Part shown: positions 46,657 through 57,736 of the stretch, piece by piece
How positions within the stretch are numbered: the stretch's first letter is position 1
Layout of the letters: each line of letters begins with the position of its first letter
Source: Escherichia phage rV5_ev147
Strand: one strand, 5' to 3'
Length of the DNA: 64,000 nucleotides
Sequence record: LR597647
Translations under genes and position numbers: made by a program
Notes under the pieces: generated by a model
What the model was told of the DNA's origin: nothing
What the model saw: the letters and a program-made list of their open reading frames with translations, nothing else
Database searches by the model: none

Positions 46657-47214
46657 TCAACACTTTTTGTACTCTACTACAACCACATCAATATCTGTGG
46701 TTGCAAGATTAATTACATCTTCTACATGTTCCCACTTTAGACCGCCAATACCGCATCCGATTTTAGGAATGTAGAACGGCAATGACACACCTTTGAATAC
46801 CTCGTTGACTCGCTCAAAACCTTTCATGATTGAGAAGTATTCAGCATTGGGCCCTGGGTAGAACTGGGTATACAGGTTGATTCCATATACGACCCTGTTC
46901 TTGGCAAAATGCTCCCAACAAGAAAACATACCCAGCTTGTCTAGATTCCCATAAGCAGTCTCTTTGTCGGCTGCCAGTGCTTGAGGGAACTCACGGGCAA
47001 TATCTTTCGCTATGCCTGCACCCATTGTGTGAAAGCAGTTACAACCGTGGATCATGTGGCCTGACCCTTTCTTGAAAATGGAGATTAGATCTCCCTTTAC
47101 AGTATCAATAATCACGGTATTCCAGCTCCTCTTCTGCAATTTCCAAAAACTCATCCCAACCCTGTGGCATATTTGAGTTGCCGAAGTGGCTTTCGTAGTA
47201 GAGATTTTTACCAC
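46657..47214 (-). CDS. macro-domain protein, TARG1/OARD1- and DarG-like (ADP-ribose processing)
   Basis: KGDLISIF...IHGCNCFHTMGAGIAKDI and IPKIGCGIGGLKWEHVEDVI parallel TARG1 (GDLF..HCISEDCRMGAGIA / MPRIGCGLDRLQWENV); start uncertain. Confidence 0.7.
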   Translation of the reverse strand: MVKISTTKATSATQICHRVGMSFWKLQKRSWNTVIIDTVKGDLISIFKKGSGHMIHGCNCFHTMGAGIAKDIAREFPQALAADKETAYGNLDKLGMFSCWEHFAKNRVVYGINLYTQFYPGPNAEYFSIMKGFERVNEVFKGVSLPFYIPKIGCGIGGLKWEHVEDVINLATTDIDVVVVEYKKC

Positions 47215-48309: not shown

Positions 48310-48371
48310 TTTTCAGATCTCCTTATACAAAAATGCCCCACCCTTTCGGGCAGGGCTATGTTAACTAGATG

Positions 48372-49598
48372 TTAGAATGGGATGTCATCATCAAAGGCGT
48401 ACTGTGCTGGATTCTGATCCATCGGGTCATCTTCCTCGTCATTTACAGGAGGAGCGTCTACAGTGTTTTGCTGTGGAGCTGCTTCCTGTTTGGCAGCTTG
48501 AGGTTCTTGATGGTCAGTGGACTCAGCACCGTTCTTGATCCAATCGTACAACGGCTCAGCCAGATTAGTCAAGACATCTTTTGCTTCTGCAGTAATTGCC
48601 GCTGCAAAATCATCAACTTTCGTTTTCTTGTCAATACGGCGACAAGCGTTCAACACCGCATTACCGACACTGGCACCTACTTCATCTTCAGTTCGGTTGG
48701 TGGCTTGAGCATACTCTTTCTTAAGCTCAATGGTGACTACGTGCAGTGTTTTAGCCACGCTTAGTGGGTCATCCACTTTAAACCCGCGATCCAGGATGAT
48801 CTGCAAAGCATTGATGCTATGCCCCGTCTCTACACCAATAGGGTCGTAAGAGGATTTACGCTTGCCACCAGAGCCTTGAGTGCCGTTCTCTGCCTTAGGT
48901 GGATAGGCTTTGAAACCACTGATAATGTTTCCGGTGTCTTTGTCAACAATGGCTGCAACACGACCACCTACTACCAGGTCTTTAAGCTGCTCATCAGTGA
49001 CAACCATAGCACCTTCGCCAATCTTGTGGTCATTAACAGTAACCACGTTGCCAACAATCTGAGTCACATCACCATAGATGCGTAAAACGTCCTGATTGGC
49101 ATTCTGCTGAGGTTTCTGCTTCTGGCCTTGTGATTGTGCACCTTGTTGCTGTTTTTGCTGTTGAGTCGCTGCTGGGGCCTCTCCTGCACCCAGCTTAACC
49201 ATTTTAGCCAGTGATCCTTTATAATAGGTCTTACCGTTATGCTCGTTTGCCTTCAAAGGGATATTTACGATCCATCCCGGCGTTACGGTTTCCCACTTGT
49301 CATCAATTTTAACAGAGACAGAGTCTTGATGACCAGGTTTAAGCAGCTTATCACCCATACTGATCCAAACTTCTTCACCACCTTGAAGCAGGTTATCAGA
49401 GGAATCCAGTTCAGAAATCAGTAAAGAGATGGTGTGGCTGGATTCAATTTTCTTACCTTGCCACACAGTGGTTTTAATACCTGTTGTAGGATCAGCACCT
49501 TTGATAGGTTTGATGCTGACACGTTTAATCATGCCGTGAGCCAGTAAAACAGTTTCACGCGGATTCATCGGGTTAGCAAATTGTTGAATAACGCTCAT
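48372..49598 (-). CDS. ssDNA-binding protein-like, with E. coli SSB-type C-terminal tail
   Basis: C-terminus ...YAFDDDIPF (E. coli SSB ends ...MDFDDDIPF); Q/G-rich low-complexity linker; next to replication genes. Confidence 0.55.
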   Translation of the reverse strand: MSVIQQFANPMNPRETVLLAHGMIKRVSIKPIKGADPTTGIKTTVWQGKKIESSHTISLLISELDSSDNLLQGGEEVWISMGDKLLKPGHQDSVSVKIDDKWETVTPGWIVNIPLKANEHNGKTYYKGSLAKMVKLGAGEAPAATQQQKQQQGAQSQGQKQKPQQNANQDVLRIYGDVTQIVGNVVTVNDHKIGEGAMVVTDEQLKDLVVGGRVAAIVDKDTGNIISGFKAYPPKAENGTQGSGGKRKSSYDPIGVETGHSINALQIILDRGFKVDDPLSVAKTLHVVTIELKKEYAQATNRTEDEVGASVGNAVLNACRRIDKKTKVDDFAAAITAEAKDVLTNLAEPLYDWIKNGAESTDHQEPQAAKQEAAPQQNTVDAPPVNDEEDDPMDQNPAQYAFDDDIPF

Positions 49599-49963
49599 TA
49601 TTTGTCTCCTTGTTCTTCGTTAGTGTTTGCCGTGTGTGCAAACCCTGCTTGAATTAATTTGTCCTGAACTTGAGCCAGCAGGCCCATTGCAAAACTTGTG
49701 GTCCCAGAGAGGGCCATCAGCATATCTCGTTGTTGAGCTACCCAACCTAAGGCATAGTCCAAACGACGATATTTTTCTTCTTCACGCAAAGCTTGGAATA
49801 ATTGTTCAGCCTCTGGCTGTTGTGTGAGCTCCTGAAGTCTTCCCATGAAAGAAGAAAGCACTAGCAGAAGAGACACTTGATCTTTACTTAACCCTAAGAA
49901 AAATTCTTGAGGTTGTTCTTGCTCGTTCATCGCAACCGACGCTTGATCGTTCATTTGTTCCAT
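49598..49963 (-). CDS. hypothetical protein
   Basis: ATGA overlap with SSB-like gene. Confidence 0.45.
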   Translation of the reverse strand: MEQMNDQASVAMNEQEQPQEFFLGLSKDQVSLLLVLSSFMGRLQELTQQPEAEQLFQALREEEKYRRLDYALGWVAQQRDMLMALSGTTSFAMGLLAQVQDKLIQAGFAHTANTNEEQGDK

Positions 49964-50046
49964 TATGGAATCTCCGATTTTATTTGAACAACATAGAAGG
50001 AGACACTATTTTAGCATCCCCTTCTGTAAATTACAATAGGTATTTG

Positions 50047-50309: not shown

Positions 50310-50630
50310 TTAATCGTCAAGTTCAAAATAGATTTTAACAGCTTCATCAAAGATTGGAATCCCGATGTTGTTGATAAGCTGCCAAACTACCATATCTTTA
50401 CCTGGATCTGGGAGAATGTCAACCTTTCTCCATGCGCTGTATATCCAGTTCGGACCACCTTCTGCACTAACTGGCAGATTTTCACCAGCTTCCTGTAGAT
50501 ACTTATACAGCAAAAGATATTCTGGATACTCTAGAACACTGTCCTCTGTAGTATATAGCAGTTCACGGTATACTTTTAAAAACCCTGCGGGGGTGATGTT
50601 TTCAGTCTTCATTTGCTGCTTCTCCTGCAT
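50310..50630 (-). CDS. hypothetical protein
   Basis: ORF. Confidence 0.45.
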   Translation of the reverse strand: MQEKQQMKTENITPAGFLKVYRELLYTTEDSVLEYPEYLLLYKYLQEAGENLPVSAEGGPNWIYSAWRKVDILPDPGKDMVVWQLINNIGIPIFDEAVKIYFELDD

Positions 50631-52458: not shown

Positions 52459-52862
52459 TGATCGGTCTCCTTCTTGTTAAGTCTGAATACTGCAATAATA
52501 GCATTCCCAAGGTGCAGTGTCAAATCATTTCCAAGATACCACAGCATCCCACGGTCATCTTTAATGAAAGGGTAGCAATTTGGTGCCTTCTCTTTAATGA
52601 AAGGGTGACAATCTGGTGCCTTCCAGACATTGTACACTTTCCCAACCTGAAAGAAATCAGGCCCTGTCGGGATTTTGGTGCCTGGCCACACTTGAGATAC
52701 CTGAACACACTCCACCTGCATAATAACAGGGATAGTCATGGATGTAAATGTTTTTGTTGGCTCTACTACCATAAAAGTCTCCTCTTTGCTCAACAACACT
52801 TCCATGTGTTGATAGTTTACATTAGTGACAATCACCCCAATTACGACCACACAAGTATTCAC
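52455..52862 (-). CDS. small protein, paralog family 4 (with internal 11-aa duplication)
   Basis: IKDDRGMLWYLGNDL; KAPDCHPFIKE/KAPNCYPFIKD tandem. Confidence 0.45.
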   Translation of the reverse strand: MNTCVVVIGVIVTNVNYQHMEVLLSKEETFMVVEPTKTFTSMTIPVIMQVECVQVSQVWPGTKIPTGPDFFQVGKVYNVWKAPDCHPFIKEKAPNCYPFIKDDRGMLWYLGNDLTLHLGNAIIAVFRLNKKETDQ

Positions 52863-55599
52863 CTGTGATCTGGAACGGGACTCCCATCATTTTAGAAGCT
52901 TGCCAGAAGCAATGCACCACCATTTCACCCACAGGGCTCCAGATAAGTTCAAGCTTCCCGTCATCGTTCAGGATAGGATCGTACACCGTGTTTCCGTCTC
53001 TGTCAACCACTTCGTTTCCGTTCTCATCCTTGCGTGCCTTTTTGTACTTATGACCGTCAAACACATGAAGTTTGGCTTCCTGCTCTGCCTTAAATGCTTC
53101 CAATTCTTCAATTGTGTCGAAGGTGTACACAGTCTTATACTTAGGCGTGTCAGGGACTTGAAGTTGGTACTCATCATGGTAATAAATAATACGACGAACA
53201 CCTTCATCGTACCACCCACGCTTCACCATTTGGTGGTGCATGAGTATCCCAACTAAGTCACACAACGATGCACCGCCATTTTGTTGGTATGCATTGAGTA
53301 AAGAGTGTTTAGATCGAGTCCAGATAGCATGACCATCAAAAGAGTAGATAAACTTCTTACCCGTTGCTTCCCAGAATTTCTCCAGATCTTCTTTACGCCC
53401 CTTAAGACCCGGGTTGGCATCCCAGAGTGCATCGATTACCCTTTGTCCCAACTCTGGAGAGATATCCAGCATATCTGCAACTTTATCTTTTTGTGCCCCG
53501 TACATAACCCCATACGTGATAGGTTTACCGTCGTTACGAGATACCTCTCTGCCTGCTACTTTTGTATATGCCTCGGCGTTGTTTTGGTGTGCGTCTCCGT
53601 TACTTACAACATCATAATACAAGCCGTTGTCGAACTCAAAGGCACCCCAAGCCCCGATAAGCTGCTCTAAGTTGGACCCGTCAATACCGATCTCAAAGTA
53701 TCCCGGAGGAACACCCCACAGACTACGCATCTCTTTACCCATAACCACTTTAGGAGATGGTTTAGGCATGTTCGCACAAATACTGTGTTTCTGTCGGGAA
53801 GTGTTTGTTAACCCAGAACTTTTAGCAGGAAGCTTATGGTCAATCTTCAAACGTGGGTGATTAAGAAGACCAGTATCAACCTTATCCTCCTTGATTGGAT
53901 CAAGTACCGATCTGCGGTTTCGCAATGATAACCACAAGACGATATCTTTAGCCATCTCTCCGTTCAATTTTTCAAGATTAGGGCATAGGTGTCCAAACGT
54001 ATCTTTCAGTTGCGGAGAAGTAATAAGTGCCCTAGCTTTTCTACGTATTTTCCCGAATACTTCCTTTTTAATCCTTTCGGAGTTAGGAAAGCTTCGGAAC
54101 TTGTGCACGGTTGTCTGGAACTTAGCATCAGTTTTGTTCCAGAAGTTGATAATCAGGTCACAATACTCTGACTCTAAAAGCTCGTCCATATATGCATATA
54201 CTCGTGCATCAACATCTGCATCAGGTAGAGCTTTCTTCTTGCTGTCTTTAGTTACATCCTTAGTTCTCCACATTGTCGGAAGCCAACCAGCACTGATCAG
54301 GTATCGCTTAATGTCGTCCTGGTTGCTGATTTTCATAGGTATCTTGCAGTCCGGCATTCGCTTCTGCTGTAGATCACTTATTGCCTGATCCATTAGCTCT
54401 TTAGGTAAAGGTTGTGGTGTGGAGGTGCCCTTAATATAGCCTCTCAAGAAATCAGCCATCTTATCGGGGTCTTTGCAGCCCATCTCTTCACACCATTTTA
54501 TCCCCATCTTACTGACATCTCCTGTAGAGGTAAATGCTCGCTTAGGCGGGGCTTTGAACTCTAAAGCGCTCATATCTACAGGATAGCCAAGCTTATCTTT
54601 TAACCATTTCCAACCATTATTGGAGATTGTCCCATCTTGGTTAAACGGCTTTTCAGGGAACTTGGGCCGCTGAGACATTGACAGCTCTTTTAAAGGTAGT
54701 TGCGGTTCAACACGATCAGCGATTTCTTTCATCCACGCATCGCAACGGTCACGTAAAGCAATAGCCCCATCTATGTCAAAATACACACCCTGACGGGCCT
54801 GCAGCTCCATCAGGAAGTGCTGCAGCATGCCTCGGCGTAATGCGTTCTTCCAGGTGATCTTCTTGAACCCTTTCGGCTTCTCTTTGGCAGGATCGTACAT
54901 AAAGTTCTGCATGTCAGATTTGCCGTAGAATACACCTTTTGATTCCGCTACCAGCTCTTTCCAGAGCAGCTCCTGGATGATAACGTCCTCGAATACACGA
55001 TCCACATACTTCCACAACGGAAGATCGCGCCAGTCATCAATTTGAACTTTCTGGTTACCAAGGGCGTAGCCCCATGCCATAAGGCCGTGAGGACCGACAG
55101 GCTGCATTTTCTTAGTAACCGGGTTGAATACAGAGTCCGGACAACCTTTTGGTAAAGGGCGATCAGGCCATAAGATTCGGCTCATCGCCAACGTATCAAA
55201 CAGGTTGACCTGGTGGTCGTTGATAGTCCCCATGCATTTAGGATCACGGAACATATCAAAATGAATACCGGATAATCTTTCCATCAGCATAAAGTCATAA
55301 CTGTAGCAGTTATGGCAGTTCAAAGCTGTTGGTGACCAGTCGGAATTGCCTGTAAGCCAACCTTCTAACTCCGAAAAATCTGCTATGCGAACTTCAAAAT
55401 CTTTATAAAGAGTTTTCTTTGCCAGAATAAAGTTCTTAGCCTTCTCTATATCCTCCTCGGAGTAGTGTGTGCGGTCATTTAGAGGAAGGAACAGCATAAA
55501 ACGGTTCTTATTCAGCTCTTTAAACAGGCCGCAGTGATAATAAAGATCTGGGTCTTCCAGCAAACCGGATGACTCAAAATCGAAAGACCACATGCTCAT
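52822..55599 (-). CDS. DNA polymerase, family A, with N-terminal 3'-5' exonuclease
   Basis: Exo I FDFESSG; motif B-like KPITYGVMYGAQ; motif C YYHDEYQLQV. Confidence 0.85.
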   Translation of the reverse strand: MSMWSFDFESSGLLEDPDLYYHCGLFKELNKNRFMLFLPLNDRTHYSEEDIEKAKNFILAKKTLYKDFEVRIADFSELEGWLTGNSDWSPTALNCHNCYSYDFMLMERLSGIHFDMFRDPKCMGTINDHQVNLFDTLAMSRILWPDRPLPKGCPDSVFNPVTKKMQPVGPHGLMAWGYALGNQKVQIDDWRDLPLWKYVDRVFEDVIIQELLWKELVAESKGVFYGKSDMQNFMYDPAKEKPKGFKKITWKNALRRGMLQHFLMELQARQGVYFDIDGAIALRDRCDAWMKEIADRVEPQLPLKELSMSQRPKFPEKPFNQDGTISNNGWKWLKDKLGYPVDMSALEFKAPPKRAFTSTGDVSKMGIKWCEEMGCKDPDKMADFLRGYIKGTSTPQPLPKELMDQAISDLQQKRMPDCKIPMKISNQDDIKRYLISAGWLPTMWRTKDVTKDSKKKALPDADVDARVYAYMDELLESEYCDLIINFWNKTDAKFQTTVHKFRSFPNSERIKKEVFGKIRRKARALITSPQLKDTFGHLCPNLEKLNGEMAKDIVLWLSLRNRRSVLDPIKEDKVDTGLLNHPRLKIDHKLPAKSSGLTNTSRQKHSICANMPKPSPKVVMGKEMRSLWGVPPGYFEIGIDGSNLEQLIGAWGAFEFDNGLYYDVVSNGDAHQNNAEAYTKVAGREVSRNDGKPITYGVMYGAQKDKVADMLDISPELGQRVIDALWDANPGLKGRKEDLEKFWEATGKKFIYSFDGHAIWTRSKHSLLNAYQQNGGASLCDLVGILMHHQMVKRGWYDEGVRRIIYYHDEYQLQVPDTPKYKTVYTFDTIEELEAFKAEQEAKLHVFDGHKYKKARKDENGNEVVDRDGNTVYDPILNDDGKLELIWSPVGEMVVHCFWQASKMMGVPFQITGEYLCGRNWGDCH

Positions 55600-55657: not shown

Positions 55658-57736
55658 TTAAAAAGGTGTTTCATCATCCTCAAAACCAGGAACATGGTCA
55701 GAGGACGGATCATCGTACTGGAGTTCTTCCTGCGTGTCAACAGGCTTAACAGTAGGAGTTACAACCTTATCAGCCACAACCTTGCCCATAGGTGTTTCTA
55801 CAACTGCATGCTCCTGATCCTCAAACATAGCCTGAGGTCTCCAAACAACCTCCCCACCTTCTCCATCTGTAAACATTTGCATTTCTTTGTCCCAGTACCA
55901 ATTACTGGCATCATGGAACTTACCTGTGTGCGGGTCCATAACCAAAGTGTCAGCAATACCTAGAGTTTTTGCTGGACGGTTTTTAAGACCTACCAGACGG
56001 ACACGTCCACGAGAACGATCCACCATTTCTTCGGCCTCGACACCTATGACTACCCAACTCAACTGTTCAAGCCCCGCCGATCCTCGCAAATTCTCTTTTC
56101 GCACAGGATACCAGAAAGGTAACGGGTTACCATCCTTGTCCTTAGGAGGCACAATCTCTGTACGTTTGAGGTGAGCGATCACCAAGATAAACACGTTAAA
56201 CTGCTTACAAAACGCAGCCAGCTGAGTCATAGCCATGTCCAGTTCTTTTCGCTCATCCTTAACATTAAGCCCTGAAATTACCATGGACAGGTGATCCAGC
56301 ACAATATAACGGCAATGGTACAGGCAAACCATTTGCTTAAGCTTGGTAATCAACTCATCCACCGGAATAGACCCGAAATGTTTGAACACCTTGATTTTTC
56401 CAGCTTTTGCCCATGATTGGTGAATCTCTGCGTGTTCTTGATCAGTTAAAAACTGGCTAGGATCTTCAACAAACTCTTTAACATCAAACCCTAACTGGTT
56501 TGCATACAAGGAGTTAATTGCTTCCTCTGGGTCCTCCTCAAGATGGATCATACATAGACGATCATCCTCTTCATAGTCATCAGCCTTCGGGCATGTCGGG
56601 TCCATTAGGTATCTTGCAATACAGTGTTCCAGTTTTTTAGCTACGGTTGTTTTACCGCCACCTGATGGACCTGTAAGCATTACGAGTGTCCCTTTGTGCA
56701 AGCCTTTTAGCATTTTTTGCAGTTTTGGGAACTCTGCGCTGATATCTACCCCGTTGGAAGTCTTTTTCCGCAAAGACTCGATAGAGAAGTCTTCTAAATC
56801 CGACACCGCATCAGGCACATATTTAACAGGATGCCGGAACATGTTGACAATATCTTCCAGCTTTTTAGCCTTCAGCATGTCTCGGATATCTTTTACACCG
56901 TCAGGGTCGTTTACTTCACCAGGGTATTCTACGTGGTAAACGTTATCAGCCATCAAAAATGCTGCGATATTGTGCGTGGCCTCAACACCTTTAATGACGT
57001 GTTTTTGCTTCTCTACCTCGTTAGCTGCATCGTTATCCATTGCCAGCACAACTGTTCCATAGCTACGGATAAACTTCTCATTGTTTGCAAAAGTATCTAC
57101 TGCGTTTGCACATCCACAGTTAATTCCAACAAAAGGCAGGCAGGGTTTTCCTGCCAGATCACCACCGTTGATAACTGCATCGATCCCGTCCTGGACCTCT
57201 TTAGCCCACTGCTTCACCTTTGCCGGGGCTTTAGCGTTGGTGAGAATCCCTTTTACTTGTATCTGATATGCAGCCTGCCATGCTGCAATAACATCACCTT
57301 CCCCCTCACAAACGTTAATTTGCTTACGGTTGTTGGAAGATGCACACAGCTTTTGCCCAAACATCTGAGAGTTAGCCTTTACTATGCCAACAACTGAGAA
57401 ATGGCCCCTTTGCTCTTTAGGAATCGTCCAGTCACGCTTTTTGAAACCGGACAGATTTCCGTAGCGGTCGTAATATGGGAAATATGTTGCAGTGACTGTC
57501 ACACCGTCTTCTTGTGACAATGCTGATCGCACACCAAAATATTGTGCAGCCATCAGACCGATATTTTGTTGTGGGACAGGGACAATTTTAGTATTTTCTA
57601 AAACAGTCTCTACAGTTTCAACTTCTTTTTCATCACGATAGTCTCGTTTCACACTTCCCCCACTTTTATACTTAGTTGCTTTCGGGTTTGGCTCACCGAA
57701 ACGGTTGTATGCAGATGCCATAAATTTACTTCCCAT
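55658..57736 (-). CDS. DNA primase-helicase (TOPRIM plus DnaB-like ATPase, T7 gp4-type)
   Basis: TOPRIM VVLAMDNDAANE; Walker A GPSGGGKTT; helicase motif VIAHLKR. Confidence 0.75.
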   Translation of the reverse strand: MGSKFMASAYNRFGEPNPKATKYKSGGSVKRDYRDEKEVETVETVLENTKIVPVPQQNIGLMAAQYFGVRSALSQEDGVTVTATYFPYYDRYGNLSGFKKRDWTIPKEQRGHFSVVGIVKANSQMFGQKLCASSNNRKQINVCEGEGDVIAAWQAAYQIQVKGILTNAKAPAKVKQWAKEVQDGIDAVINGGDLAGKPCLPFVGINCGCANAVDTFANNEKFIRSYGTVVLAMDNDAANEVEKQKHVIKGVEATHNIAAFLMADNVYHVEYPGEVNDPDGVKDIRDMLKAKKLEDIVNMFRHPVKYVPDAVSDLEDFSIESLRKKTSNGVDISAEFPKLQKMLKGLHKGTLVMLTGPSGGGKTTVAKKLEHCIARYLMDPTCPKADDYEEDDRLCMIHLEEDPEEAINSLYANQLGFDVKEFVEDPSQFLTDQEHAEIHQSWAKAGKIKVFKHFGSIPVDELITKLKQMVCLYHCRYIVLDHLSMVISGLNVKDERKELDMAMTQLAAFCKQFNVFILVIAHLKRTEIVPPKDKDGNPLPFWYPVRKENLRGSAGLEQLSWVVIGVEAEEMVDRSRGRVRLVGLKNRPAKTLGIADTLVMDPHTGKFHDASNWYWDKEMQMFTDGEGGEVVWRPQAMFEDQEHAVVETPMGKVVADKVVTPTVKPVDTQEELQYDDPSSDHVPGFEDDETPF

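Follow-up and report, generated by a model that had tools for sequence, protein, structure and literature searches.

The primase-helicase of phage T7, gp4, carries an acidic tail that ends in Phe and docks on the T7 polymerase. The tail of the T7 SSB, gp2.5, has been described as binding both the T7 polymerase and the helicase. On the bacterial side, RecO anchors the free carboxyl end of the SSB C-terminal peptide (SSB-Ct) through R132, with Pro176 and Phe177 being critical. The SSB of phage HK620, a bona fide SSB as demonstrated with the purified protein, needs its host-like C-terminal hexapeptide NDYPPF to recruit the phage annealase Sak4 (PMC5928155). Phage SSBs are also emerging as common triggers of defences, as with Retron-Eco8, DARNA, DRT9, and DRT10.

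The closest described protein is Bas52_0087. A preprint of 30 April 2026 reported that phage Bas52 (RudolfGeigy, MZ501102) evades the DRT10 reverse-transcriptase defence via D252V or Y351C in bas52_0087, and genetics showed that Bas52_0087 is needed for full or efficient activation of DRT10 (bioRxiv 10.64898/2026.04.29.721553). Using Phold and AF2, the authors called the protein SSB-like, with two OB folds and a disordered C terminus, and noted that FDDDIPF mimics the C-tip of E. coli SSB. In their proposal, the protein interferes with ExoI (SbcB), by competition or displacement. In the same study, SbcB overexpression weakened DRT10 restriction of Bas52, and expression of Bas52_0087 alone neither affected E. 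coli viability nor triggered DRT10. The two escapers recovered carry missense changes, consistent with an essential gene. The SSB-like protein is mentioned in neither the DARNA nor the Retron-Eco2 paper.

Here, we analyzed an orthologue encoded in a stretch of Escherichia phage rV5_ev147 DNA (LR597647; the whole 64,000 nucleotides are referred to as the window). The window protein and Bas52_0087 (QXV84166.1) are of equal length, are identical at 404 of 408 positions, and have the same neighbouring genes; A401S, beside the tip, is among the four substitutions in Bas52_0087. The start-codon region of the gene in the window matches the forward cloning primer of the preprint. Since the preprint covers a 99% identical protein, the observation and its reading were already known, the latter as a prediction of an SSB for Bas52_0087. 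Full-length homology and synteny place the window protein in the same family, and its match to PHROG 4477 (E = 7e-174), whose label is "unknown function," spans all 408 residues. Both D252 and Y351 are present in the window protein. Over this region, Escherichia phage rV5_ev156 (Vequintavirus) is 100% identical and many rV5-like phages are 97 to 98% identical. The gene product is a hypothetical protein in nearly all records and a putative SSB in a few (JLBYU08); shorter relatives in Phapecoctavirus-like phages also carry an SSB annotation.

The ORF starts with ATG and lies on the minus strand (Table 1), and the same frame on the plus strand is full of stops. The protein ends in ...NPAQYAFDDDIPF (also printed as ...DQNPAQYAFDDDIPF), directly before a TAA codon at positions 48372 to 48374. 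Because this stop codon and then a terminator directly follow, IPF is the true C terminus of the window protein. We also considered a hidden read-through extension and rejected it, as the terminator lies there and neither a homologous peptide nor an in-frame continuation is encoded past the stop. In other Vequintavirus isolates, this post-stop region (approximately 48335 to 48372) is an insertion hotspot for a phrog_1035 gene. Upstream, an AAGGAG Shine-Dalgarno sequence lies within the 3′ end of a 121-aa gene, and the arrangement of the two genes suggests that they are probably cotranscribed and translationally coupled. The 121-aa product had no Pfam or NCBIfam match. A small gene occupies the matching position in distant relatives too (24% identity). 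The 121-aa product may act as a partner to the SSB-like protein. One depositor (JLBYU08) labelled the 121-aa gene "putative ssDNA-binding protein." Other small neighbours, at 46657 to 47214 and 50310 to 50630 (both minus strand), encode a macro-domain protein (Poa1p-like, ADP-ribose-binding, by the depositors' label) and a DUF7238 protein (Pfam E = 3.4e-07). The DUF7238 gene again stands beside the SSB-like gene in three loci from distant relatives (L010, L013, and L015).

TABLE 1 Features of the SSB-like locus, its genome context, and comparison loci outside the window
Feature	Position	Strand	Remarks
Whole ORF, SSB-like protein, 408 aa	48372..49598	-	Orthologue of Bas52_0087 and rv5_gp209; PHROG 4477
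N-terminal beta domain (OB1), predicted OB fold, residues 1-138	49185..49598	-	Conserved E-x-N-G-K-T-Y-Y motif, residues 119-126
Disordered Q-rich linker between beta domains, residues 139-170	49089..49184	-	pLDDT 26-36; sequence
Second small beta barrel, predicted OB2/IF1-like, residues 171-232	48903..49088	-	pLDDT 82-87
Predicted four-helix bundle, family signature domain, residues 250-357	48528..48851	-	Predicted model
Disordered linker, Pro/Gln/acidic-rich, residues 358-399	48402..48527	-	pLDDT 30-39
SSB-Ct-like acidic tip YAFDDDIPF, residues 400-408, free C terminus	48375..48401	-	Sequence; comparison with PDB 1eqq
Intrinsic terminator	48335..48356	-	Strong GC-rich hairpin and T-run directly after the SSB-like stop
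Upstream 121-aa gene, PHROG 7310	49598..49963	-	Stop overlaps SSB-like start (TAATG); function not assigned by PHROG
Sigma-70-like promoter match, TTGTAA-17-TAAAAT with TG	50008..50036	-	Precedes the 121-aa and SSB-like genes; match to the consensus only
T7-like family A DNA polymerase	52822..55599	-	Context; candidate phage client of acidic xPF tails
gp4-like primase-helicase	55658..57736	-	Context; acidic C terminus ...GFEDDETPF (55658-55690)
Cap loci outside the window	L017:1633-1680 (rV5 gp209); L016 (Bas54); L018 (Bas49); L010; L011; L007:4465-4510 (Eryne); L013; L015		
Homing-endonuclease insertion loci, for comparison	L009:1573-2151; L010:4244-4867; L016:1473-2096		

The preliminary description of this locus, made from the sequence, had claimed that the protein ends in the host SSB tip. 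Our analysis confirmed this observation of a host-type tip on an SSB-like protein: the last seven residues, FDDDIPF, are those of E. coli SSB (PDB 1eqq, ...PPMDFDDDIPF). Given the amino acid composition of the genome, DDDIPF is expected by chance with a probability of about 2e-8 at one given C terminus and about 5e-6 over approximately 220 genes. The tail is also kept in relatives that share as little as 29% identity, and P407 and F408 do not vary in our alignment (A1). The low chance expectation and this conservation in distant relatives together argue that the tip is not a chance match. Among the 150 best cluster representatives, 115 end in xPF ([IVLM]PF in 108 and another xPF in 7), preceded by net acidic residues that average 4.7 over the ten positions before PF; the exceptions to the xPF end are mostly truncated fragments. 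Many family members carry the full ...EPPMDFDDDIPF, which equals E. coli SSB over 12 residues. Residues 358 to 408 of the window protein thus have the arrangement of a bacterial-type SSB, namely, a disordered linker followed by an acidic D-D-D-[IL]-P-F tip with a free carboxyl end.

The remainder of the protein bears no such likeness in sequence. As the earlier account had noted, the body departs from the OB-fold sequence of the host protein: with E. coli SSB as the query, tblastn matched the tail only (E = 0.007), and Pfam and NCBIfam gave no match for the 408-aa protein. No Pfam domain, PF00436 included, was found in 134 homologues, and a profile link to any SSB family was not found even with these 134 sequences. 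Against PDB sequences, phmmer and two profile searches matched nothing except the tail. Similarity to T7 gp2.5 or DUF2815 was found neither in sequence nor as the closest fold. That account had also proposed structure prediction for OB folds as a check, and an AlphaFold2 model (27 homologues; mean pLDDT, 74.5) together with fold searches predicted two OB-like beta domains. The best PDB matches in the fold search were bacterial and mitochondrial SSBs, RPA, and PriB, with Stn1 and editosome OB proteins also among the matches, so that an OB-fold DNA-binding core is present as a predicted fold. Foldseek agreed weakly with this overall picture (RPA, DUF2815, and the lactococcal phage p2 SSB). It also returned IF1 and proteasome-OB matches over 65 to 71 columns with a probability of 0.98 to 0.99, and their length fits OB2, to which we would assign them. 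The Q/G-rich linker mentioned in the preliminary description is only partly borne out: a Q-rich stretch exists (13 Q in residues 140 to 169, pLDDT below 50), but it sits between the beta domains and not before the tip. According to the model, the four-helix bundle appears to be an orphan fold and holds both sites of DRT10 escape; its helices span residues 253 to 355, and disorder sets in again over residues 362 to 408. D252 is nearly invariant in A1, and G255, G259, H260, N263, G312, and L316 of the helical domain are invariant.

The extent of the family was determined with an exhaustive HMMER search that used the alignment as the query (E ≤ 0.001) and clustering at 50% identity, which yielded 244 clusters. 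The typical member has about 270 to 300 aa, in which OB1 is joined to the helical domain and the tail; OB2 is absent from these shorter proteins (a gap in P0052 to P0056 of A1), and the long form that contains it is in the minority. For most of the remote members, the best profile match covers the helical domain and the tail. The hosts given in the phage records are mainly Escherichia, Klebsiella, Salmonella, Cronobacter, Pectobacterium, Enterobacter, Erwinia, and Serratia. The label "Campylobacter phage" stands on 21 records. About 16 to 21 records so named (e.g., MG065654, MG065666, and MG065644; host C. jejuni) are 97 to 99% identical to rV5-like coliphages here, which probably reflects wrong host labels or isolation from mixed enrichments. 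In phage Gotham (MT682716, L002:9373-10586), annotation at the SSB-like 3′ end is limited to a 285-nt CDS, the next 930 nt carry none, and the numbering of the record restarts at the same place (F10B_0214 to F10B_0001). This short CDS is probably an artefact of annotation or sequence error and not a real truncation. Domain-wise mosaicism is visible in A1 when P0040, P0041, and P0043 are compared with P0007 to P0034. In some proteins, the linker and second barrel are near-identical to those of the P0007 group and OB1 is very different or the helical domain is different; a divergent OB1 lowers the overall identity with the window protein from about 80% to about 50%. This mosaicism implies recombination between domain-coding segments.

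The SSB-like gene lies approximately 3 kb downstream of a T7-like polymerase on the same strand, in a replication block that also includes the primase-helicase and a Dda-like helicase. Phage Eryne encodes its short homologue just downstream of the polymerase. We looked for another SSB and rejected this possibility: no SSB is annotated in the complete genome (136 kb), and tblastn with manually entered sequences of E. coli SSB, T7 gp2.5, and T4 gp32 found nothing beyond the tail of this ORF. The primase-helicase is the sole other ORF of the genome with an acidic stretch plus PF at its end. The locus thus combines an acidic tail with terminal Phe, a T7-like polymerase, and a gp4-like primase-helicase with its own such tail, as in T7-type systems. 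Similar helicase ends were seen in four of six relatives retrieved (...EDEDCPF, ...GDEDDMPF, ...EEDDVPF, and ...DLDEPF), although the Eryne primase-helicase has no such tail while the Eryne SSB homologue has one. The conservation of the helicase tail is drawn from few sequences, as a homologue search with the helicase C terminus returned only 9 proteins.

About 1 in 10 family members continue past IPF with a conserved peptide, e.g., ...DDIPF-APVGLQYGKSRIHAL, which we refer to as the cap. The cap has 14 to 16 aa, with the consensus A-P-[IV]-G-L-Q-Y, 2 to 4 further residues, and a hydrophobic end such as PALLNCM or GKSRIHAL. The motif (PIGLQY or PVGLQY) was not found in the literature searched. 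Capped proteins include that of the type phage rV5 (rv5_gp209, 423 aa) and those of Bas49 EmilHeitz and Bas54 MaxBurger, which have 15 extra residues after IPF and end in ...DDIPFAPVGLQYGKSRIHAL. Up to 32 of approximately 115 Vequintavirus records are capped, and four of these were verified as uninterrupted ORFs. The peptide is also present on annotated SSBs of Vibrio, Proteus, Escherichia, and Klebsiella phages. Scanning IMG/VR for PFAP[IV]GLQY returned 48 loci (L021 to L068), mostly ORFs of 160 to 250 aa such as ...EPPMDFDDDIPF-APIGLQYPALLNCM; of five cap ORFs tested, two contained the PF00436 SSB domain and three had no Pfam domain. Furthermore, an APIGLQY cap follows the ...DDDTPF end of the primase-helicase in one relative (P0205; 691-aa ORFs in L026, L046, and L066). 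Because the same cap is found after both, the SSB and helicase tails are apparently equivalent modules.

In the capped Vequintavirus alleles, an EndoVII/HNH-like homing-endonuclease gene (phrog_1035) is inserted such that its beginning overlaps the extension, with its start codon inside the cap, and the capped allele travels with that gene in this genus. We considered that the cap is a mere footprint of the homing endonuclease, that is, its 5′ overlap, and rejected this as a full explanation. Across six diverse cap copies, the ratio of synonymous to nonsynonymous differences is 73:94 in the SSB or helicase frame versus 18:161 and 7:171 in the other frames, and all 15 third positions vary. This codon bias indicates that the cap is under purifying selection in the SSB frame. 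In addition, the cap occurs with no endonuclease gene nearby (Eryne, L013, and L015), on PF00436 SSBs, and after the helicase tails. The phrog_1035 gene is present with a cap in rV5, Bas49, and Bas54 and without one in bov10K2, and it is absent from the window phage and Bas52. Capped alleles with the endonuclease gene read DFCDDIPF and not [AS]FDDDIPF, a variant that may represent a co-conversion tract.

Since R132 of RecO anchors the carboxyl end of the Phe, which the cap would bury, canonical binding of the tip is expected to be prevented for as long as the cap stays in place. Judged from its reading frame, the tip of the window phage is uncapped and exposed. Conversely, a free tip is seemingly not strictly essential, because near-identical capped phages, the type phage rV5 included, are viable. 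We tentatively entertain a broader possibility, to which we give well under even odds: the ...DDxPF tail may be a portable partner-binding module on unrelated phage replisome proteins, in which the cap buries the tip and the window phage has the uncapped, host-engaging state. Its carriers may comprise PF00436 SSBs, small SSBs without a Pfam domain, the rV5-type family, and gp4-like primase-helicases. If this is true, near-identical phages would differ in the access of their SSB to the host SSB interactome or to defences that sense SSB. The capped and uncapped laboratory phages (Bas49, Bas54, and rV5 versus Bas52 and the window phage) are a natural experiment.

Taken together, we consider it likely that the protein is the replicative SSB of rV5-like phages, from an SSB family that is an orphan by sequence and carries a host-type partner-binding tip. 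OB1, plus OB2 in the long form, would bind the ssDNA exposed by the gp4-like primase-helicase and the T7-like polymerase. The conserved four-helix bundle may serve in self-association and cooperativity or in contact with a partner. The disordered acidic tail would present YAFDDDIPF-COOH, a copy of the host SSB C-terminal peptide. As the tip copies this peptide, we propose that phage-coated ssDNA can engage the proteins that read it; candidate readers are host ExoI (SbcB), RecO, PriA, chi, and RecQ. The phage's own polymerase may also read the tip, as in T7. Host partners are favoured by the bacterial tip sequence, which is copied over 7 residues in the window protein and over as many as 12 in relatives, and by the effect of SbcB dosage, and the polymerase is favoured as a client by the acidic xPF tail of the primase-helicase.

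How these clients are weighted is the only difference from the nearest rival, which overlaps the reading as a replicative SSB: the acidic xPF tail would mainly serve the phage replisome, as in T7, and its likeness to the host tip would be secondary. We regard this as possible, at roughly one chance in three at best. The primase-helicase and its relatives also end in an acidic xPF tail (...EDDETPF here), the polymerase is T7-like, and one cap peptide follows both the SSB and the helicase tails. However, the tip is more than an acidic stretch with a terminal Phe, as bacterial SSB-Ct is copied over 7 residues, or up to 12 in relatives, whereas T7 gp2.5 ends in ...DGDF. The Eryne primase-helicase lacks such a tail despite the tailed SSB homologue, and the DRT10 phenotype is linked to the SSB-like protein and modulated by the dosage of SbcB, a host protein.

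The preliminary description had left the choice between a bona fide phage SSB and a decoy. The first option gained from the predicted OB folds, the position in the replication module, the xPF tail, the preprint, and the lack of another SSB, and a pure decoy is disfavoured. As a decoy or anti-host factor, the protein would bind little or no ssDNA, and its tip would titrate host SSB-interacting proteins such as ExoI, RecQ, or RecJ away from host SSB or phage DNA. Identity with the host tip at the last 7 residues is compatible with this, as are the suggestion of SbcB competition or displacement and the weakening of DRT10 restriction of Bas52 by SbcB overexpression (bioRxiv 10.64898/2026.04.29.721553). 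Yet a decoy would need the tail alone, while two OB-like domains and the conserved helical domain are kept across 244 clusters, and capped alleles are common. With folded domains conserved, a gene in the replication module of a genome that otherwise has no SSB candidate, and lone expression of Bas52_0087 harmless to E. coli, we judge a pure decoy unlikely. More improbable still is another OB-fold replication or recombination protein with an SSB-like tail, such as a RecO-like mediator (which combines OB and helical parts), a helicase loader, or a primosome factor. The matches cited for such a protein are no better than generic ones, and RecO and PriA read the SSB tip and do not carry it. Moreover, the same tail and optional cap occur on canonical PF00436 phage SSBs, which places the rV5-type protein in the same functional slot as these SSBs.

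The SSB-like family is widespread in large enterobacterial myoviruses and mostly "hypothetical" in the records. If the tip plugs phage ssDNA into the host SSB interactome, it would explain how host nucleases and restart factors are borrowed or blocked. A phage with its own polymerase and helicase would then still exploit host factors, and the tuning of DRT10 by ExoI dosage would be explained.

Compared with known systems, the nearest is Bas52_0087, whose treatment in the preprint consists of prediction and genetics. The preprint does not set the helical domain apart as an orphan fold, nor does it cover how far the family extends, the tail of the helicase, or the capped alleles. The value remaining beyond it lies in an uncharacterised family, its orphan helical domain, the two-tail replisome logic, and the cap polymorphism. 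Like T7 gp2.5, the window protein is a candidate phage SSB that stands beside a family A polymerase and a gp4-type primase-helicase and has an acidic tail with a terminal Phe. It resembles E. coli SSB (PF00436; PDB 1eqq) in having a predicted OB fold as the closest structural class, a disordered linker, and a tip identical over the last 7 residues. In contrast to E. coli SSB, its body has no sequence homology, a second beta barrel and a four-helix bundle are additional, and a Q-rich linker lies between domains. With the HK620 SSB it shares the combination of a phage SSB-like protein and a host-like C-terminal peptide, on a scaffold that is larger and different.
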